This document shows, piece after piece, positions 29,466 to 55,145 of a DNA stretch of 58,620 nt (its first letter is position 1; each line of letters starts with the position of its first letter). The translations under genes and the position numbers were made by a program. Source of the stretch: a virus (Duplodnaviria; Caudoviricetes). The stretch lies in IMG/VR virus record IMGVR_UViG_3300031841_004380, positions 1 through 58,620 of that record; one strand, given 5' to 3'. The notes under the pieces were generated by a model. The model saw only the letters and a list, made by a program, of their open reading frames with translations. It had not been told where the DNA came from and did not search any database.

Positions 29466-29783
29466 ATGGCAACATATAAGATTAATGATACAAAAAAAAG
29501 TAATCAGCAAAATACTTTGTTTAATGTAAATAATCAAGGTAGGGATTATAGAAATCAGTATGAAAGCAGTCGGCAAACGACTACTAGAATGAACTACAAC
29601 AAGCCACTAAGACCAGCAACCGCATATCATCCACACTATTTAGTATCAATTCTATTGATGAATACCTTCATAAGAAATAATCTATATCATCCATACATTT
29701 CTTCTGGTAGTAATCTTAATAATAAACCATTTGTTTCTATTTATTCGTTTTACAGAATAATAAAAGAAGAAGAAGAAGAATAA
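29466..29783 (+). CDS. cassette 1 module A (AYHP family)
   Basis: MATYKIN...RPATAYHP...NTFIRNNLYHPY; paralog of 39994, 46905, 55211. Confidence 0.8.
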   Translation: MATYKINDTKKSNQQNTLFNVNNQGRDYRNQYESSRQTTTRMNYNKPLRPATAYHPHYLVSILLMNTFIRNNLYHPYISSGSNLNNKPFVSIYSFYRIIKEEEEE

Positions 29784-29785
29784 TT

Positions 29786-30505
29786 ATGTTAGATCCAGTA
29801 ATCATAGCTGCAATTAAAGCTTCACTTGATAGCAATAAAAAGGTTGCTACAGTTCCTTCGAAAAATAAAAATGATTATGATACTTGGATTCCAATAGTAA
29901 GTGATATAGATTGGGACATAATATTATCTAATATTAATACCAGTTCATCGAATGCAGCACCTGCTTTGTCTAGCGATATAGATTCAGATATTTTTGAAGA
30001 TCGATTCATATTAGCAAAGCCGAATGTACCGGGAGAAGCTGTTTATTTATTAATAGCTCCAGATATACCTTCATGCGGCTCGTGTCAACTTGTTGGTGGA
30101 GATTTTTCATTAAGAGGCGGCATAACTTATCCAAGCGGCGATGGGCCAGAAGGTAACACTCAGGGATACCCTCTAATTGCAACTAGTTGTGAAGAACTTA
30201 ACGAATATATTAGTATGGAGCCACTGATTGAAGGAGCAGAAATAATTATCGGTTATCCTATCGACTGGACTTTCCAATATGCAGACGGTGAATCAGTTAG
30301 CGGTAGCGGATGCGAAAATTTACCAGAAGATATTGCAACGATGTACTCGGAAGTAAAAGGTCTAAGTCAATCAGATTGCGTAAGCACTGATAGATTTACT
30401 CTTTCTTGGATACAGAATACTGCTATTGTGTCTACAGGAACTCCAGAGTCATATTTCGATCCATATGTATATTGTCAAGACGGTGGTTATCGATTAGAGT
30501 CATAA
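29786..30505 (+). CDS. cassette 1 module B (acidic Cys-rich, subtype B1)
   Basis: CGSC..VGGDFSLRGGITYPSGDGP...GYPL.ATSC...GYPIDWT...VSGSGCENLPED. Confidence 0.8.
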   Translation: MLDPVIIAAIKASLDSNKKVATVPSKNKNDYDTWIPIVSDIDWDIILSNINTSSSNAAPALSSDIDSDIFEDRFILAKPNVPGEAVYLLIAPDIPSCGSCQLVGGDFSLRGGITYPSGDGPEGNTQGYPLIATSCEELNEYISMEPLIEGAEIIIGYPIDWTFQYADGESVSGSGCENLPEDIATMYSEVKGLSQSDCVSTDRFTLSWIQNTAIVSTGTPESYFDPYVYCQDGGYRLES

Positions 30506-30524
30506 TAAGAAAGTATATAATAAA

Positions 30525-31751
30525 ATGAGTATATCTCCAGCAGATCCAATGTCTACAATATATTCTGTATACAGAAAAGAACCGGGCGTAACTGACCCTT
30601 CAGACCCTACTCCTGCTGACTTAAAAGAAGGAGGACCATCATACAGACCAACATACGAAAATAGGAATGGGGCGTGTTACCAATGGAGTACAGGTCCTGA
30701 TGGCGAACTATTTCCCGAGAGAGTATGGAACCTTTATGAAGATCCATTTATGGGTGATGAAAACAAAATTCCGAGAAATTTTTATTCATCCTACGGTTTA
30801 TTTATAGACACAGATCCATTTAACATAAAAGATAAAAATGGTCATAATAAAGCATTCGAAACAAAAATATCTATTCAAGAAAAAGAATATTATCCTATAT
30901 CAAAATCTTTAGCAAATATTAATGCTAGCTTGAATGATTATGATAATTTTTTGACGAGTATTACAAAAAAATTTGAGTATCGTAAAAGAAAAGTAAGCAA
31001 TGAATTAGGACTAACAATAAATTCACCAGTTGATCTTGGTAGATTGAAGATTACAATAGACAAAAATCATTTAAATAAAGGTTTAAGATTAACCATACCT
31101 GGGTGGGGAGCGATACTTAATCATCAAGAAAAACCTATACAAGAATGCACTCCACTGCTCCCAGCTAAGCCTAATCCTGCTTGGTTGATCAGAAAAGTTT
31201 ATGTTGTAGCAAATATAGATCCTGTATATTATGAATTGATTAATTTGAAGTGGAAATGGCTAAATAATAATATAAAGAATCCAAAACTAAAACTAGCCAA
31301 TTGGCCAGAAGCTAAATTTTTAGCTGTTAGAAGCAGTAGGTTTTTAGGAGGTATGGGTGTACTTCCTGATAATAGTTATACTTATGCAGTATTACCATTG
31401 TTTCAAGAGAATTTAAAAAATATTACAGCTGAACGTATTGAATATCAAGATTTGTCAAAACATCCATTTACAAATGGTTTTACTTTATTGATACATCCTA
31501 TTGAAATTTTAAGAGAAACAAGAGCTATATCTAGTTTAACAGTATATATTTATCAAGAAGTAGTTCACAACATAACCGCTGCAGAATTAGGATTAAAAGA
31601 TGGTTTGACAAGAAAATATTATTACAACGACAGCACTGAAATAACCGATAATTTAGAAACTAATACCTATAACTTTATCTCAGGTCCAGGCAAATTCCAA
31701 GGATTTCCGCATGATCAAGAGATATTTAATAAATATGTAAGTGGTGTATAG
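30525..31751 (+). CDS. cassette 1 module C (variable cargo, unknown function)
   Basis: 408 aa ORF after B; no recognisable family. Confidence 0.75.
   Translation: MSISPADPMSTIYSVYRKEPGVTDPSDPTPADLKEGGPSYRPTYENRNGACYQWSTGPDGELFPERVWNLYEDPFMGDENKIPRNFYSSYGLFIDTDPFNIKDKNGHNKAFETKISIQEKEYYPISKSLANINASLNDYDNFLTSITKKFEYRKRKVSNELGLTINSPVDLGRLKITIDKNHLNKGLRLTIPGWGAILNHQEKPIQECTPLLPAKPNPAWLIRKVYVVANIDPVYYELINLKWKWLNNNIKNPKLKLANWPEAKFLAVRSSRFLGGMGVLPDNSYTYAVLPLFQENLKNITAERIEYQDLSKHPFTNGFTLLIHPIEILRETRAISSLTVYIYQEVVHNITAAELGLKDGLTRKYYYNDSTEITDNLETNTYNFISGPGKFQGFPHDQEIFNKYVSGV
31743..31750 (+). promoter_or_regulatory. GGTGTATA putative late promoter (cassette 2)
   Basis: Exact motif 56 nt before ATG 31799. 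Confidence 0.6.
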
Positions 31752-31798
31752 ATATACTAACCACACATGCATACTCGTCGTAAAAAAAGAAGTAAAGT

Positions 31799-32767
31799 AT
31801 GTCGACATATAACATAAATCCAAAAGCTATTAGCAGAATATCTTTTAATAAAAATAAGAGAGAATATATACCTCCTACGACTACATTAGGTAGAGATATC
31901 ACTCTAGCAAACGAACTTTCCTCAACAGTTAATACGCCTATTTTTGCTAATGATGTTACGCATGTTGAGAGTTTGACTAAAACTAATGATATGGTCGCTA
32001 ATACCAATTATCCAGTCAATACTGCTGTATTTTTAGGGCATAGAATTCCTTATTTGCCTATTGGAGCTAGCACTGTTTATCCATATGAATCCGAAATATA
32101 TTCTACGTTGCCAGTGAATGATGGATATAAGCCTACCTTCTACCATAAATATTTTGAATCTAAACAGTATGAAAGAGTTGCAGAATTTCCTGACTCTTCA
32201 GTTCTTGCTGGTCTTTCTATAGCATTTGAAGATTTTATAGACAATCTACCAGATATAGAAACACAGTCAGCACAATCGTTTCAGACATTGGCAGAACCAG
32301 ATATCAGATATTTTTATTATAGGTCTATGAATGGTACTTGTCCTGCGTGTGAAGTAAATGGTCTTGAAATGATTGGTGGTGTTAGCTATCCAAGCGGTGA
32401 TGGGCCAATTGATGGTAGCGGTGGATATCCTCTTAATCTTACATCATGTGCAGATTATGATTTAGAAATAGCTAGACAAGCTGGTACATCAGCGGTGATG
32501 GATGAATTGACATGGACTTTTACTTATCTTGACGAAAGCAGTATTAGCGGCGTTTCGTTAAATCCATGTGATGAACTACCTTCAGATGTTACTGCTGCTT
32601 TTAGTTATGTTGGAGCTAATGAAAGAATCTGTGATTTAGCAGCAGAAACATACCCTAATATAGATATATCTATGAATATGTACGATACAGAAATTATTTA
32701 CACAGGAACACCGCCAAGTTCTCCTGTGGGTACACCGTGTTCCGATTTATTTGGAGAATATGTATGA
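31799..32767 (+). CDS. cassette 2 A-like/B fusion (subtype B2 core)
   Basis: MSTYNIN...YPVNTAVF...IPYLP, then YFYYRSMNGTCPAC.VNGLEM.GGVSYPSGDGPIDGSGGYPL...GTPCSDLFG. Confidence 0.8.
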   Translation: MSTYNINPKAISRISFNKNKREYIPPTTTLGRDITLANELSSTVNTPIFANDVTHVESLTKTNDMVANTNYPVNTAVFLGHRIPYLPIGASTVYPYESEIYSTLPVNDGYKPTFYHKYFESKQYERVAEFPDSSVLAGLSIAFEDFIDNLPDIETQSAQSFQTLAEPDIRYFYYRSMNGTCPACEVNGLEMIGGVSYPSGDGPIDGSGGYPLNLTSCADYDLEIARQAGTSAVMDELTWTFTYLDESSISGVSLNPCDELPSDVTAAFSYVGANERICDLAAETYPNIDISMNMYDTEIIYTGTPPSSPVGTPCSDLFGEYV

Positions 32768-33798
32768 GCGTATTTAGTGGGGGTGGTTGGTGTGGGTGGC
32801 CAAATGGAGCAGGTAACCGCACAAGTTATCTGTCATGGGTAGAGAATGCATGGTATTCAGGTGAAGAAGAGGGAAGCCAATACAATAAGAAGAAATGTCC
32901 TTCAAAGCCGGTTGGTATTGAACGTTATTTACCAACTTACTCCCCCAGTATTAAGCAATTAAACAACCTAGGCGATTCATCGTTTAGTAGCGCATATAAT
33001 GAACTAGAAACAGGAAAAGGATGTAAGTCCTTAGTGACGTGTAGCACAGACCCTGACATAAAGTATTGTGCAACCGGCTGTAGGGACGAGCTAACCTTTA
33101 GAAACTCGTTGCAGAACAAAAGTCTGCGTATAAGAAATTTGACTAATAAAGTCATTAACCATGTCCCATTTTATCAGGGCATAATCCCTATTCCTGGTGA
33201 AGAACTATTGGCGGCTACTGGTGAAATTGGTGGCGGATGGGGGGCAAGTTTAAGGCCTCCTAATAGAGTTAAATTCACCGGGCAAATCGAATATAAAAGA
33301 CTAAGTCCTATATTAGGAGGTCTTCCTGCGGATGCAGAGATAGAGACTATATCAGTAACCACTCAATCTCATGAGATAACTGGCACACTCGAGCACTATA
33401 CTCTTGGCGAAAGAGTTCGTTCGAAGACCGGGACATATAGCTTTCGACCAAAAGGCGGAGTATATTCTGCCATGAAGATAAAGACAAATAAGAATAAATC
33501 TGGGACTAAAACCACATATTCTGTAACAGAAGCTAGAATTGATTCTAATAATGCAAATTATACGATTGTGGGTACGGTATGTGTCCAATGGGGACTTTAC
33601 GGAGAACTTCGAACATGCTATCCGATTTACAAGTCAAATGAGCTGATTATTGAGAAGAGTATTGGTTCAGAGAAAACTATGGTAATAGAATTTGAGGCTT
33701 GGACTGATAGTGTAGTTTATGGAAGTAAAAAATGGGCCGGATGGAATGGTTCACAGCGTCGTAATAGTCGCACTAGATATAAATATACTTTAGGGTAA
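32764..33798 (+). CDS. cassette 2 module C (basic, Cys-containing variable cargo)
   Basis: ATGA-coupled to the A-B fusion; GGAG RBS. Confidence 0.75.
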   Translation: MSVFSGGGWCGWPNGAGNRTSYLSWVENAWYSGEEEGSQYNKKKCPSKPVGIERYLPTYSPSIKQLNNLGDSSFSSAYNELETGKGCKSLVTCSTDPDIKYCATGCRDELTFRNSLQNKSLRIRNLTNKVINHVPFYQGIIPIPGEELLAATGEIGGGWGASLRPPNRVKFTGQIEYKRLSPILGGLPADAEIETISVTTQSHEITGTLEHYTLGERVRSKTGTYSFRPKGGVYSAMKIKTNKNKSGTKTTYSVTEARIDSNNANYTIVGTVCVQWGLYGELRTCYPIYKSNELIIEKSIGSEKTMVIEFEAWTDSVVYGSKKWAGWNGSQRRNSRTRYKYTLG

Positions 33799-33846
33799 TA
33801 ACATGAACACATATACAAGTATTCCTCCACAAAATTAAGGATAGCT

Positions 33847-34842
33847 ATGTCAACATATAAAATAAATCCAAATAAAAAAACAGTACCAACTATTAATATA
33901 GCTAAAGTATATCCAGATCCATATCCTAATCTGGATACTAGATCTAAAGTAAATTTTTATAATACTGAAGGTACTGCTTTAGATGCAAACCAGGCCGCTA
34001 GGCATTACGGTAACATTCAACCAAATAGTTTTTTCCAAACTATTGGAGACTATACTAATAGCAGTATTAAGTATGGAATATATGTTCCATATCTGCCTAT
34101 TAGCGTAGAAAATTCTCCTGCTGACGGCACTGTTGAAACTTCTGATAACTTTTACACAGATAATATTGAGAACATAGACTATAATACTAACAATTTATTG
34201 ACTAACAGTAAAAGTATCAGCAAACAAAATAGTTTTACATTCTATAACAATTTACAAACTAGACCAATCACAAATAAAAAACACATTAAAAATCCTCTTT
34301 TTAATAGTCCTATAGGATTTCTTACTGAAGAAGAACTGGCGTTTTTTGAAACTATTCCAGATTTTGTGGTACAAAATAATGACTTTGAAATTTCAAATAC
34401 AGACGAGGTTTCTGCTTTAGCTTTAACATTGAGTAGATATGCTGCGCCAGATGCAGATAGTTGTGGATATTGTGCGGTATATCAGTGGGAATGGTCGGCA
34501 AACACGAGCTATAGTTGCGATCCGTCTGGTGTTCCTGACGGTTGGACGCACTATGTAAGTGGCGAAACATGCGGTATAATAGCTAGCGGTGTGTTCGGTA
34601 CATGCTCTAATCACGTTATTCCAACCTATGTAACAGATATGGTAGGTGATCTTTGGAGTCTTTCAGCTAGGATGGTTGGCGATACTTACGATAGCGAAAA
34701 TGAATGTAATGCTTACAACAACGATCCTGCAACCTCTGGCTGTTATGGTTGGATTCCAGCAAATGGTATGAGCATTTATCCAGTAACAGGAATTCCTGAT
34801 GGTTATGTTCCTTGTAGTGTTGAATTTAATCATATTACTTAA
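33847..34842 (+). CDS. cassette 3 A-like/B fusion (divergent B)
   Basis: MSTYKIN...GIYVPYLP; acidic Cys-rich C-terminal part beginning SCGYC. Confidence 0.75.
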   Translation: MSTYKINPNKKTVPTINIAKVYPDPYPNLDTRSKVNFYNTEGTALDANQAARHYGNIQPNSFFQTIGDYTNSSIKYGIYVPYLPISVENSPADGTVETSDNFYTDNIENIDYNTNNLLTNSKSISKQNSFTFYNNLQTRPITNKKHIKNPLFNSPIGFLTEEELAFFETIPDFVVQNNDFEISNTDEVSALALTLSRYAAPDADSCGYCAVYQWEWSANTSYSCDPSGVPDGWTHYVSGETCGIIASGVFGTCSNHVIPTYVTDMVGDLWSLSARMVGDTYDSENECNAYNNDPATSGCYGWIPANGMSIYPVTGIPDGYVPCSVEFNHIT

Positions 34843-34859
34843 CTTAATGGAGATTGGCG

Positions 34860-36008: not shown

Positions 36009-36025
36009 TTCAATAGGAGTTGGTT

Positions 36026-37231
36026 ATGGCATACAATAATTATTACAAGGTAACTAAAGGCTTTTCTCTGCCGAGAGGAGAAAGCTGCATTCCTGGATGG
36101 AATGAACTAGCATGTGAATATGTAGATGTAAAAACAGGGTCTGAAATGCCACCCAGAGGGATTACTGATGTCGAGATAAAACGGCTAATCGAAGCTAATC
36201 GAACCTCTGAGGGTGGGTTAGTGCCATGGGCAAAAAGTATGAGATTTTATTCAAACAATCCTGATAAAATCTTAGCTGTATTTAAAAATGTATGTAGATG
36301 TTTTTCTACACAAGATAAAACCCAAGGATTTATAACCCCCTGCACGGTACTAGGATGTCACTGCAAAATAATAATAGGTCCGAATACTAGATGTCTTTCG
36401 GATGCAGATGTTAAAAGACTTCAAAATTTTCAAGTATGTAGTGCTGGGATGACAGTTTTTAAAAAAAATAATCAACCAGTCGACCCATATAGCCCTGGCT
36501 GCATGTGCCGTCAATGTTACGATATACAATCTATTGTGGAGGTGGGAGATCCTGTAACTTCTTATGGGAATTTTAGCGATTACAAGACTCGGCGGCCTAT
36601 CAAGGTAATTCTTGCCGACGGCGAGGAGTATAAGACGCCATACAGAATTACAAGTAGAAGAGGCACAAAATCGGCACTACGATTAATCGAGGCTAAAGAA
36701 ACAGCTGTAAAGGTTATAACCGGAAAATATTATGATAGGCGATCTAAGTATAACAGCTTTGAATTTGAAGAACAAATAGATAGTAGTTCTAAAATTCAGG
36801 CTGATTATGAATTAACGCACACAATGACCTATAGTGATTTGATTAGACTCTCTGGTGAAAATACCAATATTAATCCTTTGATTGGTGCAAGCAACAACTG
36901 GGAAGGCGAGATGGCAAAAATAACGTTGAGTGAAGCGGCTAATATCGTTGTTTCACACGTTAAAAAGCTCCCCCTTCCAGATGGATGGATAGCAACAGAG
37001 ATATGGTATGGAGAAAAATTGGAAAACCTTTCTGAAGGTAAAACGGTTGAGCTGTGGAGACATCCCGTGAGTAACGCCTTAGGAGGCGTAAAAATAAAAT
37101 ATGTAAAGACTCCAGTAACCTTTAAGGCTGATGAGGATTATTCCATCACTCTTCCAGAAAAACTAATTAAAAAATATCCTCACATAATAATGAAGACTCT
37201 TGCTGGCTTTAGGAATATAACCCATGTTTAA
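36026..37231 (+). CDS. cassette 3 module C, copy 2 (tandem paralog)
   Basis: Same motifs as 34860; identical 26-nt block at 35700-35725 and 36899-36924. Confidence 0.8.
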   Translation: MAYNNYYKVTKGFSLPRGESCIPGWNELACEYVDVKTGSEMPPRGITDVEIKRLIEANRTSEGGLVPWAKSMRFYSNNPDKILAVFKNVCRCFSTQDKTQGFITPCTVLGCHCKIIIGPNTRCLSDADVKRLQNFQVCSAGMTVFKKNNQPVDPYSPGCMCRQCYDIQSIVEVGDPVTSYGNFSDYKTRRPIKVILADGEEYKTPYRITSRRGTKSALRLIEAKETAVKVITGKYYDRRSKYNSFEFEEQIDSSSKIQADYELTHTMTYSDLIRLSGENTNINPLIGASNNWEGEMAKITLSEAANIVVSHVKKLPLPDGWIATEIWYGEKLENLSEGKTVELWRHPVSNALGGVKIKYVKTPVTFKADEDYSITLPEKLIKKYPHIIMKTLAGFRNITHV

Positions 37232-37982
37232 AAAAATCGTCACTATACTTTTACTGTCTGCTAGTTTGTGTCTGGGTGGCACTATTGACCCTAGTGTTCC
37301 AGATAGTAAGTATGTAGAATATGGTAAAAAATATGAGTGCGTTTTACCTATAGCCGGAATATATGCTGATAAGCTTAATAGTCAGTTCAAGGCATCCTGT
37401 GTTGTAATAGATGAATATTATGTATTAACAGCCGCTCATGTAGTAGAAGGATCAATTACTCAGCATGTAATCTACAAGAATGAAGTTTATCCTTGTAGAG
37501 TTGTAGTAATACCGGTTGAATTTAAAAAAGATGTAAGTCTTGGGCGTAGTGATATAGCATTAGCTAAATTACAAAGACCATTAAAACTAGATTTCTATCC
37601 TGAGCTATATTCAGCAGACGATGAGGTTGGAAAAGTTTGTGGGATGGCGGGATATGGATTTACTGGTACTTTAAAGACAGGTGCTAATAGGCCATTTGAT
37701 AATACTAAAAGGGCTGGATCTAATATTATTGATAAAATAGAAGACGATTTTTTAATTTGCAGTACTGGTAAGGGCACGAAAACCACACTGGAATTCATGA
37801 TTGCACCAGGAGATAGTGGTGGTGGTTTATTTATTGACCAAAAATTAGCAGGAATTAATTCTCGTGTTTTTTCGACAGATGGCAGCGCAAACTCTGATTA
37901 TGGTGATGAAGGGGTTTTCACTAGGATTAGTGTATATTATGAATGGATACAGAATATTAAAAAGTTAACGAAAGACTTGTAA
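37224..37982 (+). CDS. secreted trypsin-like serine protease (S1)
   Basis: Signal peptide; LTAAH, DIAL, GDSGG catalytic triad. Confidence 0.93.
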   Translation: MFKKIVTILLLSASLCLGGTIDPSVPDSKYVEYGKKYECVLPIAGIYADKLNSQFKASCVVIDEYYVLTAAHVVEGSITQHVIYKNEVYPCRVVVIPVEFKKDVSLGRSDIALAKLQRPLKLDFYPELYSADDEVGKVCGMAGYGFTGTLKTGANRPFDNTKRAGSNIIDKIEDDFLICSTGKGTKTTLEFMIAPGDSGGGLFIDQKLAGINSRVFSTDGSANSDYGDEGVFTRISVYYEWIQNIKKLTKDL

Positions 37983-37983: not shown

Positions 37984-39024
37984 ATGAGTACATATACGGC
38001 TGTAGCCCGTGAAAGCACAAATACAATAAAATTCAATACAATCAAAGAGAAGCAAAACGATTATTATTATTTGATACTGAGAGATAAAACCGTAATTAAT
38101 CCTGATCAGAGTGTAGGTATCAATACTGATCCTATATTGCCATCTCAACGAAAAACAAAAGCAACAAATAATAACTCTTTCACTAATAGTATCTATCCTC
38201 AAAATACGGCTGTATTTAGAAATATAGATGTTCCATATTTAGGCATCAAAAACAACATACCTTTGCCTGACCCTTCGCTATTTTATACTCAAAACGTAGG
38301 CGAAAGTCTGTCTGCTCATGAATTAAAGAAAATTTCTGATACGAGTGTAACTACTTTTACGCAAAATTTTTACAATAAAAAGCAAAACAAAGAATTTTTT
38401 ATTGGTAGAGAAGATGCAAATACTATATACAATTATTATGCACCTGACACATCTCTAGCAATGCAGCAAATATTGCAAGATTTTATTGATAATCAAATTA
38501 ATACACAAAATGCACAGGATATTAGTGCTCAAAATCTTAACGTAGAATATTTTTATTACAGATCTATGGCTGGTACTTGTCCTGGCTGTGTGGTAGAAGG
38601 TGGAGACTTTTCGTTACGGTTTGGTGTCAGTTTTCCCAGTGGAGATGGGCCTCTTAATAATGAACAAGGCTTCCCTTTAGTGGCGTCAAGCTGTGCAGAG
38701 TTAGAACAAGAGATAGCCAACACGCTAGCAAGCTATAGCGATACTTCTATGGAGTTGGGTTATCCTATCGACTGGACTATTACATACAAAGACGGTACTG
38801 TGGTTAGTGGCTCTGGATGTGAAAATGTACCGGAAGATTTTGCAGACGCTTCATCGCAATCTTTTGCTGGATTAAGTGGACCAGGGTGCGAGGCTCTAGC
38901 TACACAATATTCAGGTATCAATATATATTTTGATAGTTTTGATACAGAGGTAGTTGTCTCAAGTAGTGGTACTGTACCAATCGTTGGTACTCCATGTTCA
39001 GATTTATTTGGCAGATTAATATAG
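37984..39024 (+). CDS. cassette 4 A-like/B fusion (subtype B1 core)
   Basis: MSTY...YPQNTAVF...VPYL; YFYYRSMAGTCPGC..EGGDFSLR.GVSFPSGDGP...GYPIDWT...VSGSGCENVPED...GTPCSDLFG. Confidence 0.8.
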   Translation: MSTYTAVARESTNTIKFNTIKEKQNDYYYLILRDKTVINPDQSVGINTDPILPSQRKTKATNNNSFTNSIYPQNTAVFRNIDVPYLGIKNNIPLPDPSLFYTQNVGESLSAHELKKISDTSVTTFTQNFYNKKQNKEFFIGREDANTIYNYYAPDTSLAMQQILQDFIDNQINTQNAQDISAQNLNVEYFYYRSMAGTCPGCVVEGGDFSLRFGVSFPSGDGPLNNEQGFPLVASSCAELEQEIANTLASYSDTSMELGYPIDWTITYKDGTVVSGSGCENVPEDFADASSQSFAGLSGPGCEALATQYSGINIYFDSFDTEVVVSSSGTVPIVGTPCSDLFGRLI

Positions 39025-39993: not shown

Positions 39994-40362
39994 ATGAGTA
40001 CACGCACAGCAACATCATCTCAATCTAAAAATAATGTTTCTTTCAACCGAAAGCCTGGTGGCTATCTGAATTATGACTCAGAAGAATCATTGTATGATCT
40101 TCGGGATGTAAGTCGTGCTATAGCAGAAAAGGGTGTCGGATCATTGATGCAAACAGACCCCACAAGCTTAGCTATACCAGAAAGAACCGCCTATCATCCA
40201 CACTTTGTAGATACGGCGCCTATGATTAATTTTTACTCTTTAAATCGTTGGTATATACCATATTTGCCATTATCTTCAGATCTTAGTTATCTGCCACTTA
40301 GCGACACAGTTACATTTTATGATTTAACTAAGCAAGGGCAAAACAGAATCAGATTTGCTTAA
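39994..40362 (+). CDS. cassette 5 module A (AYHP family)
   Basis: MSTRTAT...NNVSFN...TAYHPHF...NRWYIPYLP. Confidence 0.8.
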   Translation: MSTRTATSSQSKNNVSFNRKPGGYLNYDSEESLYDLRDVSRAIAEKGVGSLMQTDPTSLAIPERTAYHPHFVDTAPMINFYSLNRWYIPYLPLSSDLSYLPLSDTVTFYDLTKQGQNRIRFA

Positions 40363-40380: not shown

Positions 40381-41310
40381 ATGCTTGGTCCTCAATTATC
40401 AAAAAATCAAATAGAAGCTGTTAAACAAGCACAATCAGATAGCAATAATACACAGGGGTTCCCTGCGAAAACTCCAGTAAGCGATAAAAATCCTATTGAA
40501 AAAGTTCATGACGCAATAGACAGATTGAAAAGAAGAGAAGACAGAGACAGGTTGCACGGATGTATATTTAAAAATATTGGATGCATGGGTTTGGATCCGC
40601 TTGAATTATTGGTCAAAATTTTTGATGGAAATTTTGAACCATGTAGAGATGCTGGTATTTGTCAAAAAGATAGATGCAACGGATGCTGCACCAATGAGCC
40701 TTGTTGTGGCAAACCAGACTGTGATAATCATATATTAATATCTATAGATTTATGGTCAGATGTCGACTCCATTACTAGACCTTCTAATGATATAATAGAT
40801 AATATAAAAGCTCCAGAAATACCAGTATTAGAAGACCAGGAGCTTGGTATTATAGGTGAATATATGGATGCATATGCTCCTGTTTGTCCAAGATGTGTAG
40901 TAAATGGCTTGCAGATGGATGGCGGCGTTAGCTTTCCTGACAACGATGGGCCAATTGATGCTAGCGGTGGATATCCTCTTAACTTTGGATCCTGCTCGGA
41001 TTATTATAACGAAATAGCTACCCACAGCGGCACTTCGGCGGTGCTGAGTGAGTTTACATGGAGTTTTACTTATCTAGATAGTACTTTTGTAGGGGGTACT
41101 TCAGTAAATCCATGTGCAGATTTACCAGCAGATGTTATTGACGCTTTTACCTACGACGGTGAACAAAGCCCAACAATATGCAGCGAAGCTGCTGAATCAT
41201 ACAGCAACATCGATATTTCTTTTAGTAGTGCTAGCTATACTGTTCAAAAACAATCATTGCCACCAATTTCTGGTCAACAAAAATGTGGTTCATTCTGGGA
41301 GACAACATAA
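40381..41310 (+). CDS. cassette 5 module B (subtype B2, with an extra Cys cluster)
   Basis: CPRC.VNGLQM.GGVSFP.NDGPID.SGGYPLN..SC.DY...GTSAV..E.TW.FTYLD. Confidence 0.8.
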   Translation: MLGPQLSKNQIEAVKQAQSDSNNTQGFPAKTPVSDKNPIEKVHDAIDRLKRREDRDRLHGCIFKNIGCMGLDPLELLVKIFDGNFEPCRDAGICQKDRCNGCCTNEPCCGKPDCDNHILISIDLWSDVDSITRPSNDIIDNIKAPEIPVLEDQELGIIGEYMDAYAPVCPRCVVNGLQMDGGVSFPDNDGPIDASGGYPLNFGSCSDYYNEIATHSGTSAVLSEFTWSFTYLDSTFVGGTSVNPCADLPADVIDAFTYDGEQSPTICSEAAESYSNIDISFSSASYTVQKQSLPPISGQQKCGSFWETT

Positions 41311-42299
41311 TGGCATGTAACTGGATAGTAGGTGAAGAAATAGAAAATGTAAATTATAACTCTGATTTATATGGAAGAGTGCTTTGGGGTCCTCCAGTAT
41401 ATAGAACAGATGAAAGAGGCCATAGAATCCTTGTAGGCCCAGCTCCTTTTCCTTGCCAACCGAAATTTATAACCAATGGTGCTTGTGTCGGGGGAGAAAA
41501 GGATATTACAACAACAATACCTAAAGATGGCAGCCTAGACGAACATTCATCGTTAGATTTAAAGGCGTGGTGGACTGATGATTATGACCCTTACGACAGG
41601 AACAAAAGAAAAACTGCACCAACATTTGAAATAGACGATGTATGTCCAGACCTCAATACAGCAAGCGAAATTATCAATCGATACAATAACCCAAAAACCA
41701 ACAAAGCATCACCCATGCGTAAGCAGGCCACCTGCGAACGGCGTTTGGGTGGACCATTGACATTTAGTGGGTTCCCCGACTGTAAATATACTGATTACAT
41801 AAAAAATGGATTTGTCGTAAATTACCATTATGAAACTATAAGTATAACATTTGATTCAATAGTAATAAAAAATCTTATGCAAAAAGAAAAAGAATATTTG
41901 CTTAGTCAATTTAGCGAAGAAGAAATCAAAGGCAGGACTTTTAATTTTGGTGCTAGCACTAATCTTATAGATACAAAAGCACTACAATCGGGTGGTGTGA
42001 CTCTTGATCATGAAGAAAAAATTCCCACTAGGTTAAATATTGATTTTTTACAAATAGATAAATATAATCCGGTAGGTGTAAGTGCTAACTACAGAAATTG
42101 GGCTTGGAGTTGGGAATACGCGATTCCAAATTTAGCAACATTAAATAAAATGGGAATTGTATCAATTGAATTCGGCGTAAACTCGCAATGCTTTTTAACA
42201 GAGTGCCCCTTACCACCCTTCACTCCCACTGAATCTTATCATCTAGAACAATGGTACTACACTGATAACACAGATATACAAATTAATAGATTATTATGA
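41310..42299 (+). CDS. cassette 5 module C (variable cargo)
   Basis: TAATG-coupled to B; GGAG RBS; MACNW... Confidence 0.75.
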   Translation: MACNWIVGEEIENVNYNSDLYGRVLWGPPVYRTDERGHRILVGPAPFPCQPKFITNGACVGGEKDITTTIPKDGSLDEHSSLDLKAWWTDDYDPYDRNKRKTAPTFEIDDVCPDLNTASEIINRYNNPKTNKASPMRKQATCERRLGGPLTFSGFPDCKYTDYIKNGFVVNYHYETISITFDSIVIKNLMQKEKEYLLSQFSEEEIKGRTFNFGASTNLIDTKALQSGGVTLDHEEKIPTRLNIDFLQIDKYNPVGVSANYRNWAWSWEYAIPNLATLNKMGIVSIEFGVNSQCFLTECPLPPFTPTESYHLEQWYYTDNTDIQINRLL

Positions 42300-43195
42300 A
42301 AAAAATTAGCTTATTACCATATATCAGAGAAGATATTTTTGGATTAGATTCCAATAGTGGTCAGTTTTATGGCTGGGAAATTATTAAATTTGAGATACAA
42401 AAATATTGGAAATATAGCATGGGAGAAGGCGTTAAGGTAGCAGTCATAGATACTGGATGTGATCTTAACCATAATGATCTTAAAGAAAATTTAATAGCTG
42501 GATTTAATTTTGTTAATGAAGGTTCTGATCCTCAAGATGGTAATGCTCATGGCACTCATGTAGCAGGAACAATAGCTGCTAGTGATAATAACTTAGGGAT
42601 GGTGGGTGTGGCCCCAAGGACGAAAATCATCCCTGTTAAAAGTTTGGGTGACAACGGCTCAGGAAATTTAAAAGACGTCGTTGAAGGGATCATATGGGCC
42701 GCTGACAACGATGCTGACATACTTACCATGAGTCTAGGAAGCCCCACTTCCTCACGCCATATGCAAAACGCCATCAATTATGCGGCCGGTAAAGGTTGTC
42801 TTATTTTTTGTGCTGCTGGAAATAGTGGCCCTAGTAATGATATCATGTTTCCTGCTAGATATAACAATACTATCAGTATCGCAGCAATAGACTCTAATCT
42901 TAATCGGACTAGTTTTAGCTGTAGCGGAAAAAGCCTAGACTTTCTAACACCAGGCAAAGATATTCTTAGTTGTGTGCCTGGAAATCGTTATGCTAAAATG
43001 AGCGGTACAAGTATGAGCAATCCTTTTGCAGCAGCTTGTGCTTCGTTAGCTATTTCTGGTTTAGGCAGAAGAATAACTAGAGACGAATTTATCAAACTAT
43101 TTAAGAAAACAGCACAGAGCTTAAAAGACCCTAAGTATAAAGGCGATAAGAAGTATGAAGGTTATGGCATCCTATACCCTATTGTACCTGCCTGA
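42296..43195 (+). CDS. subtilisin-like serine protease (S8)
   Basis: VAVIDTG, HGTHVAGTI, AAGNSG, SGTSMS. Confidence 0.95.
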   Translation: MKKISLLPYIREDIFGLDSNSGQFYGWEIIKFEIQKYWKYSMGEGVKVAVIDTGCDLNHNDLKENLIAGFNFVNEGSDPQDGNAHGTHVAGTIAASDNNLGMVGVAPRTKIIPVKSLGDNGSGNLKDVVEGIIWAADNDADILTMSLGSPTSSRHMQNAINYAAGKGCLIFCAAGNSGPSNDIMFPARYNNTISIAAIDSNLNRTSFSCSGKSLDFLTPGKDILSCVPGNRYAKMSGTSMSNPFAAACASLAISGLGRRITRDEFIKLFKKTAQSLKDPKYKGDKKYEGYGILYPIVPA

Positions 43196-46846: not shown

Positions 46847-46861
46847 ATTTTAGGTCGCTGA

Positions 46862-46869
46862 GGTGTATA
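46862..46869 (+). promoter_or_regulatory. GGTGTATA putative late promoter (cassette 6)
   Basis: Exact motif, intergenic, 43 nt before ATG 46905. Confidence 0.62.
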
Positions 46870-46904
46870 TATGAATACGAATCAATATACCAAAATGGTG
46901 ATCT

Positions 46905-47228
46905 ATGGCGACAAGAAAAATCGTATCTCAAATCGATGGCATAAATAATATTAGATTTTCAGAGGTATATGACAATACAAAAATAAGTCAGACTTTTTCT
47001 GAAAACAATGGATCCTATCAGATTGATGAAAATCTTACTTCAAATGAAATAAGCGATAATACCATATCTCCTCCTAGACCCACAACTCCATACGCTTATC
47101 ATCCAACACTAATTAATCGATGCACCTTCGTTAACACCTATATTAATAATGGGCTTTATGTACCTTATGTGTCTGAGAGTTTACAACTTAAACCACCCTC
47201 TATTGAAGAAATATATTACAAAACATGA
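46905..47228 (+). CDS. cassette 6 module A (AYHP family)
   Basis: MATRK...NNIRF...PPRPTTPYAYHP...NTYINNGLYVPY. Confidence 0.8.
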   Translation: MATRKIVSQIDGINNIRFSEVYDNTKISQTFSENNGSYQIDENLTSNEISDNTISPPRPTTPYAYHPTLINRCTFVNTYINNGLYVPYVSESLQLKPPSIEEIYYKT

Positions 47229-48550
47229 ATGTTGCACAATTAAGAAAAAAAGCTAAATTCAATAAAAAAGTAGTATTCAATAATAATTTTTCTAAATACC
47301 AAGATGGCGATGCCGACCTATTAACTTTCAAAGCAGAGACTAATAAAATTGCAGAAGACTTAAGAAAAACTAAGGGGTGGGAGTTCAATATAGTTAAAGT
47401 ATTATTAGATATATTTGCCGATGATGTTGAAGTTTTTGAAACTATTACTATTGGAAGTAATATTCAAGCTTCCCAGACCCTCGATATTCCTCCATATCTA
47501 CACCTTACTGGCAGAGACTGTGAATATAACGCTAGGCAATATTATGATGCCTTGGGCATAATTCCGTGTAGTGCTTGCGATGGACTTACCTTTGGCTCTG
47601 AAGAATTATTTACGTGTTTAGACTCATTCTCTTGTACATCTGAAGGGCCGTTTTTGGGCGGTTTTCCTGTTGATTGTTTGGGATCTAACGCCGCAGATTT
47701 AGAAGCTTGTGCTGATGACTGTGACCCTGGCAGAAATAGTCCAATTGATGGCTATTATAATTTAGCCCTACTAGGCAGCCCAACAGCATTTGTATATACT
47801 GCAAATTATGAAAACTCTAGTTTACCTCATGGACTGGTAACACGCTGGCAACCCGATGGACTATGGGCTGGCCAAGCTTGCAAGGAGTATAAGGGCCCCT
47901 GCTCGCCTTACAGGGTACAGCAGCAATGTGGCTGGGTGGACGCGCCTTGCCCTAAAAGTAATACGCTTGCCTATAGCCCGACCTCTATATTTACGCCGTT
48001 TAAGATAGGTAGACGCGGTTTAATGAGCTCGGTATATTATGGAATCCCAATTACATCTGCTGGTTTAGGAACACAATCTAGCCCATATAAATGGCAGGTT
48101 CGTGGCAATAAGATAAGGAACCCACAGCCTTACATTTGGAAGTCACTTGAGCAAGAACTCGGCCGATATATCCGATCGATATACGGCGCGATCGTCGGGA
48201 GAACTACTCGCAGTAAATGGAAATTGGATCGCCCAGAGCTTGTGAGTCGGGGTGATGTTAGGCCGTCCGACAAACAATATTCCATACCCACAACACTTAA
48301 GATAAGGTTTCTAGCTTCAGAGGGTAGTTTTGAAGATATTTGGCTAGATGAGCCGACTAGTTTTGGTGGCAGTCTTGAACGTGGTTTTGCGAAGCGAACA
48401 CTTATTCGTAAAGCAACAAACGAATGGATGCCGCATGTAATAGAAGTAAATATCACTACAGATAAAGAGAGTTTCATGATTTCCGGTGTAGGAAGAAGAG
48501 CTGTGACCATCGGAGAGTCATATCTATCTCTTATTGAAGACAACAATTAA
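47225..48550 (+). CDS. cassette 6 putative B-C fusion
   Basis: Acidic Cys-rich middle (CSAC...GPFLGGFP.DC) followed by a basic domain with CGWVDA. Confidence 0.7.
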   Translation: MNVAQLRKKAKFNKKVVFNNNFSKYQDGDADLLTFKAETNKIAEDLRKTKGWEFNIVKVLLDIFADDVEVFETITIGSNIQASQTLDIPPYLHLTGRDCEYNARQYYDALGIIPCSACDGLTFGSEELFTCLDSFSCTSEGPFLGGFPVDCLGSNAADLEACADDCDPGRNSPIDGYYNLALLGSPTAFVYTANYENSSLPHGLVTRWQPDGLWAGQACKEYKGPCSPYRVQQQCGWVDAPCPKSNTLAYSPTSIFTPFKIGRRGLMSSVYYGIPITSAGLGTQSSPYKWQVRGNKIRNPQPYIWKSLEQELGRYIRSIYGAIVGRTTRSKWKLDRPELVSRGDVRPSDKQYSIPTTLKIRFLASEGSFEDIWLDEPTSFGGSLERGFAKRTLIRKATNEWMPHVIEVNITTDKESFMISGVGRRAVTIGESYLSLIEDNN

Positions 48551-48561
48551 AGGACATAAGT

Positions 48562-52178: not shown

Positions 52179-52213
52179 TAATTTGAGTCTTCTTAAACAA
52201 AGGTAAAATTATT

Positions 52214-52549
52214 ATGGCTACTTTTTATTATAACGCTAGCAAAGAAGGTCGATATAATGACCGAAAAGCCAAAGCTGATCAACCAGTAAAGAATGGTGCG
52301 GGTCAAAATTTCGCAGATGGTGTGCATGAGCCTATAATCGTTACAGATCATAGTGCAGGTTTTGGTGGAGATGAAACATCCGCCCAAAGTTACATTTATG
52401 GCAGTAAACTGAATGTTGACGGAGATGTTCAGAAAAATACCGATACAGCAAGCGAAACATATCCTGGTCAAGAAGACTTTGGAACAGAATTAAAATTTCA
52501 GTTTTTTTATAGTCAAAATCCTAAAAAATATAAAGTGAGTATATTCTAA
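52214..52549 (+). CDS. cassette 7 small leader protein (A position)
   Basis: MATF.. start, size and position match module A; AYHP motif not evident. Confidence 0.6.
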   Translation: MATFYYNASKEGRYNDRKAKADQPVKNGAGQNFADGVHEPIIVTDHSAGFGGDETSAQSYIYGSKLNVDGDVQKNTDTASETYPGQEDFGTELKFQFFYSQNPKKYKVSIF

Positions 52550-53157
52550 TGCCAGGACCAGATTATATAGGCCCGACAACACCCGGAAACGTAAATCTTG
52601 TAACAGCATTCTCTAACGCACTACCTAATAGTGTTTCATTAGATCCTTTGTCTAATCTATATGGCTCAGGATGTGTACCTTCTGGTTGCTTACCTGTTCC
52701 TGGGGCGTGGATGCCACCGTTTTCTATAGAAACAGGCGGCGTAAATTATGCAGTACCTTCTACTTCTATTATTGACAACCCACTTGATTTTGGTGATGCC
52801 CTATTGCCTTTGATTGGAGGCGGCACTGTTGGTCTTGATGCTTATCTTTTAGATCCATCAGGCTATGAAATAAATTCAACAGGATTAGCAATTGGAGGAT
52901 TTCCGTTGACTGGACAAACCTGCGATGAGATGTATACTTCGTTAGCAAGTTTTTTTTCAGAGAGATTTGATAGCTCAGAAAACTATTCCTATGAAATTAT
53001 CCTTCCTCTTATAACATCATATACAAACACATCTGATAATTACATTAGTGTGTCTGGTTGGTGTCCTGATGCTAATTTTGCCGATGTGGATGCATCAGGC
53101 ATTATACCTGGTTACTCTGGCGACTTTGTACAATCCACATGGGAGTCAATACTATAA
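52549..53157 (+). CDS. cassette 7 module B-like acidic protein
   Basis: CVPSGC; GGFPLTGQTCDE matches GYPL...SC.E; VSGWC; almost no Lys/Arg. Confidence 0.65.
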   Translation: MPGPDYIGPTTPGNVNLVTAFSNALPNSVSLDPLSNLYGSGCVPSGCLPVPGAWMPPFSIETGGVNYAVPSTSIIDNPLDFGDALLPLIGGGTVGLDAYLLDPSGYEINSTGLAIGGFPLTGQTCDEMYTSLASFFSERFDSSENYSYEIILPLITSYTNTSDNYISVSGWCPDANFADVDASGIIPGYSGDFVQSTWESIL

Positions 53158-55145
53158 TGGCCAACTGTAATAATTTAGCAAGATTACAAGAATTGAAAGA
53201 AATTGAAGAAGACAAGTTAAAAATTTTCCAATTGCAGACCGCTCTATTCCAGGAAATTAAAAATCAACACCAATCTGATGGCTATTTAAAAGGATATATA
53301 AAGATACCAGGCTTTGGTGGTGTCCCAAAGGAGATTACAGATGCATATGCAGAGATACAAACAGCCATAAACGAGTATGCTAAAAATCTTAATCAATTAA
53401 AATTTAAGAGATTACCTCAAGATACAGTAAATGAACTTACTCAAGTTGTCTCCAAAGTTCAAGAAACTCTTAAGTTAGAACAAGAAGCAATAAAAGCATA
53501 CGTATCTTCATGGGTTTCTAATGCCGAAGTCAATGCTACATTTGGGACGGTTGCTTTTGGCGTTGTAACTGCATTGTTCTCTGGTTTCATATTTCCTCCA
53601 ATAGGACTAACAGCCGGTGCGGCAGCTTTTTTTTATGGAGGGATTACTGTGAGTTTCACGATGTTGGTTGGAACAGGAGGTGTTCTTATAGGAGCATCAT
53701 ATGACCCTAGACGTTACGCATCTGGCGCAATATCATTATTTTACGAAGCTAGAATTAGGGAGACTGAAACTAAAATACAAATTAACCGCTTAACCAGCAA
53801 AATAAACGAATTGTTAAAATACTGTGATTTACCAGATGCTATTTGCCCAATACAATCTAAATATCAAGGTAAATTATTTAATAGAGCAGACATATTAGAA
53901 AAACTAGATGGACTAGAAGAAAAGGTTCCTGGCACAGAAACTAATGATCCAAAAATATTGCAGTTAAATGAAGAAATAAAGAATCATAATTCAGAGATAG
54001 CCATTTTAGATAATGATATTACAAAATATTCAGCATTCTATAATCTAGTTAATAATGCGCAAGCTAATTTATTGAAAAATCAATCTGTGGCCGATCTCAA
54101 TGAAGCGGCAATTGGGGCATTTAACAAATATAATACATACAACGCAAACAACAAGGTGCATCGTCGAGCTATATCTTCCCTGATGGCCTATATGGCTTTA
54201 GAGCAATACGCAGATGCAGCAGTCAGTAAGTTAAATGAGATTGCTGATTTCGGTATTGATAACATACAAAATCAAAACATTAAAAGTATTATGAAGAGCA
54301 TAAAGAAGATGGCAAGAACAGATAATAATTATGGTCTTACAAATTGGACACCAATAAATGAACTTATAGTGCGTTGTCCCTCTTCTTTAGGGTGTCACTA
54401 TTTAAGCACTACTGATAAACTAGTCAGCTTTCCAAGCCCAAGAAATGGCTGGAAGACTTTTGCCGATTCTATATCTGACAATATTTATGATCAGGTTAGT
54501 GTAGAAGGATTAAAATTTCCAGGATTAGAAAAATTGCTTAACGATATGAAAAGTAAACTAATTTCAATTAGCGCTATAATACAACGAAAAGAAACTCTTC
54601 AAAGTCAAATTCTAGTCAAGACACTTAAGATAGCAGCTCAGAAAACATTAAACAGAAAAGACTGGAATGACTGGATAAATCAGAAACTCAACGAATATTA
54701 TGATTTTAGTAGTCCTAATAAAATATCGAAAACAACAACAAGAATACCAGTAACCAAGGCATTGATTGCAGATGGTAAACCAGCCTTTAAGGAACATATA
54801 CAAATCAAAAAGGAGTTTGGGTTTGATTTTACATATAATTCTGATAATTTTACTTATCTTTTTGAAATAGCACAAAATCACTTAAAAGCTGGTCAAGCTA
54901 AAGCTGCGGCGGAACCTTTTCCAGATGGCAGTAGTGGTGATTATCCAATTTACACACAAAGTGATATAAATTATAAAAATGTAAATACTGCAAAAGGCTA
55001 TTCTCATCCTGGTACCACTCACAAGGTTTATGCCTCGGTTGTGCCTACTACTAATAAACTAGACCCTGTTTTAGCAACAATTTTCAGCATTGGAACTGGA
55101 GGTATTCCAGAACTCACTGCTAATCTAAGTATCTGTGCAGAATAA
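53157..55145 (+). CDS. cassette 7 module C: coiled-coil protein with a long hydrophobic hairpin
   Basis: FGTVAFGVVTALFSGFIFPPIGLTAGAAAFFYGGITVSFTMLVGTGGVLIG between amphipathic helices; no signal peptide. Confidence 0.75.
   Translation: MANCNNLARLQELKEIEEDKLKIFQLQTALFQEIKNQHQSDGYLKGYIKIPGFGGVPKEITDAYAEIQTAINEYAKNLNQLKFKRLPQDTVNELTQVVSKVQETLKLEQEAIKAYVSSWVSNAEVNATFGTVAFGVVTALFSGFIFPPIGLTAGAAAFFYGGITVSFTMLVGTGGVLIGASYDPRRYASGAISLFYEARIRETETKIQINRLTSKINELLKYCDLPDAICPIQSKYQGKLFNRADILEKLDGLEEKVPGTETNDPKILQLNEEIKNHNSEIAILDNDITKYSAFYNLVNNAQANLLKNQSVADLNEAAIGAFNKYNTYNANNKVHRRAISSLMAYMALEQYADAAVSKLNEIADFGIDNIQNQNIKSIMKSIKKMARTDNNYGLTNWTPINELIVRCPSSLGCHYLSTTDKLVSFPSPRNGWKTFADSISDNIYDQVSVEGLKFPGLEKLLNDMKSKLISISAIIQRKETLQSQILVKTLKIAAQKTLNRKDWNDWINQKLNEYYDFSSPNKISKTTTRIPVTKALIADGKPAFKEHIQIKKEFGFDFTYNSDNFTYLFEIAQNHLKAGQAKAAAEPFPDGSSGDYPIYTQSDINYKNVNTAKGYSHPGTTHKVYASVVPTTNKLDPVLATIFSIGTGGIPELTANLSICAE

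Follow-up and report, generated by a model that had tools for sequence, protein, structure and literature searches.

A lineage-specific tandem expansion of three-part gene cassettes in a seawater and estuary phage

Results and discussion

The cassette array and its parts

The IMG/VR contig IMGVR_UViG_3300031841_004380, here called the window, is 58,620 bp in length, is the entire contig on record, and is a fragment of a larger tailed-phage-like genome. Its long open reading frames (ORFs), nearly all of which lie on the + strand, include a repeated three-part cassette in which a short A module and an acidic B domain, encoded separately or as a fusion, are followed by a C gene. The locus is a lineage-specific tandem expansion of this cassette in a seawater and estuary phage, and the cassette family is rapidly evolving, dispensable and recombining. 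As proposed in the original prediction, which was made from the window's letters, the array is built from a constant A or A-B part and cassette-specific C genes (Table 1).

Homology scans covered the 506 window ORFs of at least 40 aa, with profiles iterated first on the window ORFs and then on the window ORFs together with those of relatives. All of the ORFs listed in the original prediction were found in place on the + strand. The repeat, described there as about seven A-B-C units, is real and comprises six homologous units. Unit 7 was rejected as a homologous cassette, since A7 is unmatched by the A profile and only an N-terminal tag and a marginal B motif are common to it and the others. 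The order A/B then C recurs in each of the six units of the window, in five units of the related contig L003, and in the related locus L001.

The A modules are about 100 aa long, lack Cys except for one in A6, and carry the tag M-[SA]-T-[YR] at the N-terminus and the motif N..PY[LIV] at the C-terminus. Six of the seven A modules claimed were confirmed (A1, AB2, AB3, AB4, A5 and A6), with significant profile matches of E 4e-16 to 8e-27, while neither A7 nor the ORF o55199 was matched even at E<=1. The B domains, of about 160-180 aa, have six conserved Cys and are strongly acidic, as had been stated, with isoelectric points (pI) of 4.1-4.4 and net charges of -18 to -26. Matches to the B profile were equally clear (E 4e-45 to 1e-72), and the canonical domain was present in B1, AB2, AB4 and B5; in AB3 its core is replaced, the 'BC6' protein is unmatched, and B7 is marginal, its profile match (E 0.012) being confined to the GFPL..SC stretch. 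When the B alignment was compared by hhalign, E was 0.011 for B7, 0.036 for a BC-like protein of L003, and 0.27 for 'BC6'. Of the fusions claimed, A-B was confirmed for AB2 and AB4, and B-C in 'BC6' was left without statistical support. The motifs quoted for A and B are visible in the alignments. By BLASTP, A1, A5 and A6 were linked to one another, as were the B parts of B1, AB2, AB4 and B5, and AB2 and AB4 were 34% identical over 362 columns (E 2e-43). The A-B fusion was also found in all 13 metagenome relatives in the alignment of AB proteins (alignment A3), which argues that A and B are tied to one function. The B1 type has six metagenome orthologues of 67-86% identity, giving seven sequences with B1 itself.

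Cassette joints in wild populations

Three sequencing runs of one study, which may be its source, contain the window nearly whole, and 17 runs of six other studies, mostly labelled seawater or estuary, contain 8-17% of its words; no RNA run was among those listed. Contigs of four runs, each from a different one of the other studies, were aligned to window positions 28600-48590; cover of the cassettes was uneven, and uncovered parts were not used. In contigs of three of the four runs a joint from 37979 to 39990 removes exactly AB4 and C4. At this joint 13 bases, TAATATGAGTACA, fit either side, and they correspond to the preceding stop codon and the first A codons. A contig of 3,819 nt contains A1-B1-C1 followed by a joint from 31772 to 33846, at the AB2 and AB3 starts, with 21 other letters between, so that AB2 and C2 are skipped. 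In one run, abundant contigs join the trypsin-like protease gene to the S8 protease gene. The AB4+C4 and AB2+C2 joints show that whole cassettes are natural units of presence and absence, and that recombination at the conserved 5' end of A adds or removes them whole.

The array in related phages

L003 is a 26-kb IMG/VR contig that is syntenic with the window from RuvB to the homologue of ORF o49076. It carries five cassettes in an order and number different from those of the window. In the window the order is HNH, units 1 to 3, trypsin, units 4 and 5, S8, and then A6-BC6 and o48562. In L003 it is HNH, AB3'-C3'-trypsin, A5'-B5'-C5', AB-C, AB-C, S8, and further on the o48562 homologue and A-BC'; in L001 it is A6'-BC6'-C(2-like)-AB-C1'. 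The cassette set is thus not invariant and differs both between related phages and between wild strains. Identity between the window and L003 was 41% for A5, 39% for AB3, 25% for C3 and 26% for C5, as against 56-84% for seven of eight neighbouring genes and 43% for the eighth, o43687. The divergence of the cassette genes is thus far more rapid than that of the core genes around them.

In three sister phages (L008, L009 and L011), whose S8 proteases are 71-72% identical to that of the window, the HNH, trypsin and S8 genes adjoin directly, without units 1-5. These phages keep only an A6-like gene and a gene for a partner protein of 498-572 aa with a Pro-rich linker, beside the o48562 homologue. 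Searches of whole records with the B profile gave no match in four relatives (G001-G004, one of them rated 100% complete) and two in G005; the A profile gave one match each in G001, G002 and G004, none in G003 and five in G005. These counts, together with the direct HNH-trypsin-S8 joins, argue that units 1-5 are a recent and dispensable expansion. Units 1-5 occupy two points of insertion, one on either side of the trypsin gene, and the A6-type pair looks like an older form of the array.

Mosaic structure of the B domain

Exchange was also seen within the B domain, in an alignment of 25 non-redundant sequences. The flanks of B define the type of backbone, and the central 52-residue segment does not track it. 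Between AB4 and P0009, which has a B1 backbone, identity was 30% in the N-flank, 92% in the centre and 36% in the C-flank, whereas B1 and P0009 were 87%, 49% and 84% identical in the same three parts. Between B1 and P0006, which has an AB backbone, the values were 30%, 75% and 39%. A second, unalignable core, termed gamma, is common to AB3, its L003 orthologue and an L003 protein of the B5 type. The local score of the AB3 gamma core against L003_7879 was 74, compared with 32+-5 (maximum 52) in 300 shuffles. An AB3 orthologue, P0014, has the same flanks and a canonical B core. The contrasts between flanks and centre, and the occurrence of the gamma core on different backbones, show that the centre of B is exchanged between paralogs; the central 52 residues have at least two alternative forms.

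The C proteins

The C proteins of the cassettes, of about 310-410 aa, are specific to cassette type and fall into the separate families C1, C2, C3/C3', C4 and C5, with orthologues in relatives that range from weak to clear matches. As had been noted from the window, no relation among them was detected save for the pair C3 and C3': between the others BLASTP gave no match at E<=0.01 and phmmer none below E 0.22. Their description as mostly basic holds for C2, C3, C3' and C4 (pI 8.6-9.2) and not for C1 (7.1) or C5 (5.0). Weak phmmer links (E 0.015-0.04) were found from C2 to two L003 C genes. Comparisons by hhalign of the C3 family with the C5 family, the C2 family with the C3 family, and the C2 family with C4 gave E 0.3-0.7, with alignments of two to four sequences and hence low power, so that a common fold may have been missed. 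A homologue search with C3 found no protein other than C3 and C3' themselves. The long ORFs of C2 and C4 both begin with 'MFRFIW' (32737-32763 and 38994-39010); this was considered as a C motif and rejected, as it is the conserved AB C-terminus PCSDLFG in another frame.

The C genes had been proposed to encode interchangeable payloads. For the most part this was not borne out, as AB3-C3-trypsin and A5-B5-C5 are each kept together in L003, and one counter-example was found: a C1-type gene is preceded by a B1 backbone in the window and by a fused AB backbone in L001. An AlphaFold2 model of C1 from five sequences had a pLDDT of 37.6, too low for use, and prediction of a B1+C1 complex gave a score of 0.00, with the fold of the partner uncertain, which counts on neither side as to binding.

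The N-terminal tag and the upstream motif

The tetrapeptide M[SA]T[YRF] occurs eight times in the 18,081 aa of 87 gene-like + strand ORFs, and all eight occurrences are at likely N-termini. The tagged proteins are A1, AB2, AB3, AB4, A5, A6, A7 and o55199, and the tag begins at the first ATG in all but A1 and o55199, where it begins at the second. It is therefore carried by two proteins that are not A homologues (A7 and o55199), and it is retained in both of their G004 orthologues. The starts of A5 and o55199 have 17 of 18 bases in common plus the upstream TATTTAATATAGCA. The tagged o55199 lies two genes upstream of the Mtd_N tail-fibre gene described below, whose operon has the GGTGTA motif upstream; this is a weak lead towards surface appendages.

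At the unit-7 position of G004 (locus L015, reverse strand, ORFs 1246-3919), a MATF-tagged protein of 149 aa is followed by an unrelated protein of 547 aa and a Cys-rich protein of 176 aa. The tagged unit-7 locus also has a variable middle, with B7 and C7 replaced in G004.

A GGTGTA sequence, or the shorter GTGTATA for AB4 and A7, is located 42-56 nt upstream of A1, AB2, AB4, A6, A7 and o55199. A motif of this type thus precedes four of the six cassettes as well as A7 and o55199, and it is also found before four L003 units. GGTGTA is strand-biased in the window, with 19 forward and 9 reverse occurrences, and stands upstream of five other genes, including the tail-fibre operon (55806-58328) and the putatively exported thioredoxin-fold protein. 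On the + strand GGTGTA(T/A) occurs at 8509, 10109, 13933, 29417, 31743, 46862, 51445, 55155 and 55788, often 32-56 nt before gene starts, and from this placement it is a candidate phage-specific promoter element. A scan with the sigma-70 promoter consensus was uninformative. No terminator stem-loops were found at the cassette borders, the scan giving 15 against 10.8+-3.5 in shuffled sequences.

Searches for known families and folds

The view that the cassettes belong to no known family stood in every library tried. Scans of Pfam, PHROGs, NCBIfam and PADLOC with the tested A, B and C proteins yielded sub-threshold noise only. Families of toxins, immunity proteins, PAAR, VgrG or adaptors were not among the matches, although an unknown toxin could escape such scans. 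The C proteins matched no tail fibre, spike or depolymerase in Pfam or PHROGs, no such family or fold appeared in the searches with A, B and C, and Pfam gave no match for the sister-phage partners of the A6-like protein. The toxin, effector or receptor-binding payloads that the original prediction had suggested gained no support, as no such fold was found. Profiles of AB, C3 and C1 against PDB sequences gave nothing below E 0.26, and tblastn with AB4 gave no match in GenBank phages. In IMG/VR, neither AB4 alone nor a 4-row B alignment detected relatives, and a 14-row alignment found L003. A word-indexed search with AB4 returned 18 proteins, none of them named.

Among 1.84 billion representative proteins the B profile had 13 matches at E<=0.001, of which 11 were metagenome AB or B proteins. 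The other two are long repetitive proteins in which about 45 residues of B are matched repeatedly; by eye these resemble bacterial cell-surface proteins, a weak lead towards appendages. A scan of GTDB genomes gave two weak loci, L005 and the shorter, equally weak L006; L005 was discarded as spurious, as it reads in another frame what is probably a formyltransferase gene of a high-GC metagenome-assembled genome.

In the model of AB4 that AlphaFold2 gave with 14 sequences, residues 1-184 (A and the linker) had pLDDT below 50, and residues of about 200-290 formed an alpha/beta B domain with 10-residue block means of 83-93. Foldseek searches with the model gave no match at E<=0.001 in PDB or BFVD, the wide VIA-align search found no similar fold (best Z 3.4), and the ESM Atlas search gave no usable match. 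B is thus predicted to be a confidently modelled alpha/beta domain without a recognisable fold, and the A, B and C families appear to lack known relatives in the libraries tried.

Table 1. Positions and properties of the cassette genes and associated features of the window
Feature	Position	Strand	Description
Promoter-like motif GGTGTATA	29417..29424	+	49 nt before A1; equivalents at 31743 (AB2), 37930 (AB4), 46862 (A6), 52171 (A7) and 55155 (o55199)
A1	29466..29783	+	Stand-alone A, AYHP...PY type, MATY start; A profile 4e-16; BLASTP A5 2e-8, A6 8e-7
B1	29786..30505	+	Stand-alone acidic six-Cys B with 65-aa N-terminal extension; B profile 2e-56; pI 4.1
C1	30525..31751	+	Cassette-specific; 4 metagenome homologues of 55-80% identity; no family match
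AB2	31799..32767	+	A-B fusion; A profile 8e-27, B profile 1e-57
C2	32764..33798	+	Basic, pI 9.2; N-terminal C..Y..W[VI]E..W[FY]S and LSP[IVM]LG motifs
AB3	33847..34842	+	A and B backbone with gamma central core; A profile 1e-19; no B-profile match
C3	34860..36008	+	Cys-rich (15 Cys), basic, pI 8.6; L003 homologue 25% identical
C3'	36026..37231	+	Tandem paralogue of C3, 32% identity, BLASTP E 3e-50
Trypsin-like serine protease	37224..37982	+	Pfam Trypsin 3e-16; core gene with cassettes inserted around it, not a cassette member; beside S8 in array-less relatives
AB4	37984..39024	+	A-B fusion; A profile 8e-18, B profile 1e-72; AlphaFold2 model
C4	39039..39980	+	Basic, Cys-rich, pI 9.0; missing with AB4 at the joint 37979->39990 in X4, X8 and X13
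A5	39994..40362	+	Stand-alone A, MSTR start; A profile 4e-22
B5	40381..41310	+	Stand-alone B, Cys-rich N-terminal extension, 16 Cys; B profile 4e-45
C5	41310..42299	+	Acidic, pI 5.0; L003 homologue 26% identical, E 3e-10
Subtilisin-like S8 protease	42296..43195	+	Pfam Peptidase_S8 1e-54; core gene bordering the array on its right; 62-77% identity in 6 IMG/VR loci
A6	46905..47228	+	A module of the ancestral-looking pair; A profile 3e-22; A6-like genes beside o48562 homologue in G001, G002 and G004
'BC6'	47225..48550	+	Partner of A6; no B-profile match; hhalign 0.27; N-terminal 170 aa homologous to L001 partner, 8e-5
A7	52214..52549	+	MATF start and upstream motif only; no A-profile match; G004 orthologue also MATF, E 4e-6
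B7	52549..53157	+	Acidic, marginal B-core motif GGFPLTGQTCDEM; B profile E 0.012; hhalign E 0.011 over 22 columns
C7	53139..55145	+	668 aa; coiled-coil and Gly-rich hydrophobic stretches by eye; no family match; candidate member
o55199, from second ATG	55211..55744	+	MSTR tag; first 18 bases and upstream motif A5-like; G004 orthologue MSTR, E 3e-11

Possible role of the cassette proteins

The conserved adjacency of the genes argues that C is coupled to A/B. We infer, tentatively and at somewhat less than even confidence, that the products are accessory virion proteins docked through A/B, with A, B and C binding one another. This reading is favoured by the tag common to the N-termini, the chain-like succession of A, B and C genes, the conserved Cys, the Pro-rich linker, a weak lead towards TNF-like and tail-tip folds, and variation of the type seen in host recognition. 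The lead comes from an Atlas model of the C-terminal part of a sister-phage partner protein, for which the nearest clusters were TNF-like, phage tail-tip-fibre and PTL_trimer (TM 0.4-0.62). In such a system A, free or fused to B, would be the constant part and would dock via its terminal tag to a common site on the virion or an assembly intermediate; B would hold the C protein encoded beside it; and the phage would display or carry a variable accessory set for host interaction. Outer appendages resembling fibres or adhesins would be our first choice for such proteins, and packaged or ejected proteins our second.

The arrangement may be compared with the branched systems of multiple receptor-binding proteins (RBPs) in Klebsiella phages, which are reported to have anchor and branching domains and conserved N-terminal docking peptides, with many RBPs in RaK2 and phiK64-1 (PMC6872550, PMC13352976, PMC10253068). 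These are reportedly also tandem genes, attached by a constant element at the N-terminus and variable in their distal parts, that form a modular, exchangeable set. The cassettes differ in that their modules are split over two or three genes, that units 1-6 lie away from tail genes, and that no tail-spike, fibre or depolymerase family or fold was detected in A, B or C.

Several points weigh against docking on the virion. The presence of A, B and C in the particle is purely our inference, and the model behind the TNF-like lead has low confidence, with a mean pLDDT of 0.30. None of C1, C2, C3, C3', C4, C5 and C7 has the N-terminal tag, so docking of C depends on a putative B-C contact, and in alignment A3 the tag is missing from four of 14 AB sequences, which begin with MLNYY or MYY. 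The low pLDDT of A in the AB4 model may merely reflect the 14-sequence alignment. The GGTGTA motif also precedes genes without an obvious structural role. Units 1-6 sit between HNH, protease, ThyX and glycosyltransferase genes, with no recognisable tail or head gene adjoining. The structural gene context of the clade was not located either, as Pfam models of the capsid type (T4 gp23, HK97), tail sheath and S77 protease had no matches in G001-G004, one of which is a 151.8-kb record with a completeness rating of 100%; these models appear to be out of reach of structural genes as divergent as those of this clade.

The strongest competitor, which we consider only slightly less likely, is a role in host takeover or counter-defence away from the virion, where an acidic B, possibly a DNA mimic or chaperone, would work in the cell with or against the mostly basic C proteins, and the array would be a hyperplastic region under an arms race. 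The array does lie among genes of replication and nucleotide metabolism (ThyX, HNH and a nucleoside deoxyribosyltransferase), it is dispensable in the sister phages, and it shows presence/absence polymorphism and rapid divergence. The net charge of B, given above, stands against a pI of 8.6-9.2 for C2, C3, C3' and C4, and both this acidic/basic pairing and the genomic neighbourhood fit a takeover or anti-defence role equally well. Such a role leaves unexplained why an N-terminal tag is present on unrelated proteins and kept in distant orthologues, and why B has six conserved Cys; C1 and C5 are not basic, and no match was obtained in PADLOC or in Pfam models related to anti-defence, which are very incomplete libraries.

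Recombination at repeated 5' regulatory and start sequences also resembles the hyperplastic shuffling of T4-type phages (PMC2839356). In the PeSL-mediated shuffling described there, non-essential ORFans are bounded by repeated regulatory sequences, with indels and replacements between relatives likewise bounded by repeats (PMC2839356). The indels found here are also repeat-bounded, both at the 13-nt joint 37979->39990 in three of four runs and at 31772->33846, at the AB2 and AB3 starts. The repeat in the window is, however, a GGTGTA-type motif plus the first A codons, with no border stem-loops above chance, and the shuffled units are homologous three-part cassettes instead of unrelated single ORFs.

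A bolder form of docking on the virion, which we regard as improbable in its full extent, is a self-contained plug-in system of virion accessories in which a universal N-terminal tag and an A/B adaptor, with a swappable 52-residue specificity element at its centre, would attach various C proteins to the particle or inside it, and in which co-circulating phages would trade cassettes and B cores through recombination at the conserved A start. It would be a phage counterpart of polymorphic toxins or integron-like cassettes, with folds unseen before. Polymorphic toxin loci and the VgrG-adaptor-effector islands of type VI secretion systems repeat, at several loci, a set of constant delivery part, adaptor and variable cargo. 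By the analogy with polymorphic toxins drawn in the original prediction, the cassettes would follow the same logic. They differ in being phage-encoded, in giving no match to families of toxins, immunity proteins, PAAR, VgrG or adaptors, and in that nothing indicates toxicity.

Still less probable is that the proteins are packaged and ejected like the internal proteins of T4, with M[SA]T[YR] as a capsid-targeting propeptide, A/B loaded into the prohead together with C, and the cargo acting in the next cell. T4 IPI, IPII, IPIII and Alt are described as otherwise unrelated, fast-evolving and non-essential, with only the extreme N-terminal sequence in common and with a set that varies between phages (PMC3012670, PMC9026906). 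In the window, too, a short N-terminal tag is found on otherwise unrelated proteins, several C proteins are basic, and ClpP-, trypsin- and subtilisin-like proteases are encoded. Unlike a capsid-targeting sequence (CTS) on T4 cargo, the tag stands on the A module of about 100 aa, often fused to B, and the variable, presumed cargo C is separate and untagged. The ClpP-like gene is not beside recognisable head genes, the trypsin-like N-terminus resembles a signal peptide by eye, which fits an exported enzyme better than a prohead enzyme, and the trypsin and S8 genes persist in array-less phages. The T4-type gp21 and gp23 models were unmatched in relatives (PF03420, S77, and PF07068, gp23; no matches in four relatives), as they likewise were in the control genomes.

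Least probable, in our judgement very much so, is a selfish or neutral expansion of duplicating, recombining ORFan DNA without common function, its 5' end being only a recombination or expression signal: the 13 identical nt at the A start used by the deletion joint, the near-identical starts and upstream sequence of A5 and o55199, and the lack of a cassette protein assignable to a function would fit it, but the long intact ORFs in all copies and in relatives of 25-40% identity, the invariant Cys and motifs of B, and the 67-86% identity of the B1 type across seven sequences point to purifying selection on the proteins. By the features tested, the locus belongs to none of its nearest known counterparts, the T4 CTS, multi-RBP and PeSL systems, and docking through A/B on the virion is the reading that we retain as preferred.

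Other genes of the window

The IMG/VR records of relatives are 80-152 kb in length, the larger ones about 124-152 kb, with one rated 100% and one 89% complete. Pfam matches in the window comprise a rIIA-like HATPase, RuvB, ThyX, an ATP-dependent DNA ligase, UvdE, two Ogg-like glycosylases, a sigma-70 region-4 protein, a ClpP-like protease, the trypsin-like and S8 proteases, a sulfotransferase and two glycosyltransferases. No capsid, portal or terminase genes were recognised among the window ORFs. The sulfotransferase (5937-6755) is upstream of the array and the two glycosyltransferases (44918-46846) are inside the cassette region; these enzymes could act on glycans of the host surface or on the A modules, which are rich in S, T and N.

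A tail-fibre candidate at 56175-58328 is an acidic protein of 717 aa with an Mtd_N domain and a Phage_tail_C tip, both from Pfam. Diversity-generating retroelements are known to act on Mtd. The window ORFs scanned included no recognisable reverse transcriptase; template and variable repeats were not searched for. A thioredoxin-fold protein (13965-14324) has a hydrophobic N-terminal segment, a CGAC site and the motif GGTGTATAAA upstream; it may be an exported thiol-disulfide oxidoreductase and could matter for the many Cys-rich phage proteins.

The o48562 gene (48562-49071) encodes a protein whose C-terminal 80 residues have 47-69% identity with small proteins found in pelagiphages, roseophages, a Kyanoviridae phage and spindle-shaped viruses of Nitrosopumilaceae, and this domain is widely distributed in marine viruses. 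Its homologue adjoins the A6-type pair in every examined relative that has such a pair (L003, L008, L009 and L011). The homologue in Phage C48C1 was rejected as a related locus because it is not syntenic.

Two further, host-like genes, at 487-1830 and 16241-17209 of the window, bear on the host. One encodes a DUF1501 protein whose start is twin-arginine-like, and the other, which is DUF1559/N_methyl pseudopilin-like, encodes a prepilin N-methylation motif. We take DUF1559 pseudopilins and DUF1501 to be typical of Planctomycetota and related bacteria of the Planctomycetes-Verrucomicrobia-Chlamydiae (PVC) group, which hints at a host of the Planctomycetota/Verrucomicrobiota type. Nothing bearing on the cassettes was found in the literature on Planctomycetes phages.

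Significance

Hypervariable loci whose units can be exchanged are where phages keep their host-range and counter-defence functions, and the gain, loss and recombination of cassettes as units suggests that this array is a variable host-interaction kit. It combines three layers of modularity, namely the terminal tag, the swappable B core and the whole cassettes, which can be traced in wild seawater and estuary populations. If the virion does carry the products, the tag together with the A/B adaptor would represent a new route for attaching variable proteins to the phage particle, and would give a handle on host recognition in this phage clade. If they are not, the locus would still be a compact and well-delimited candidate for new anti-defence or takeover functions.

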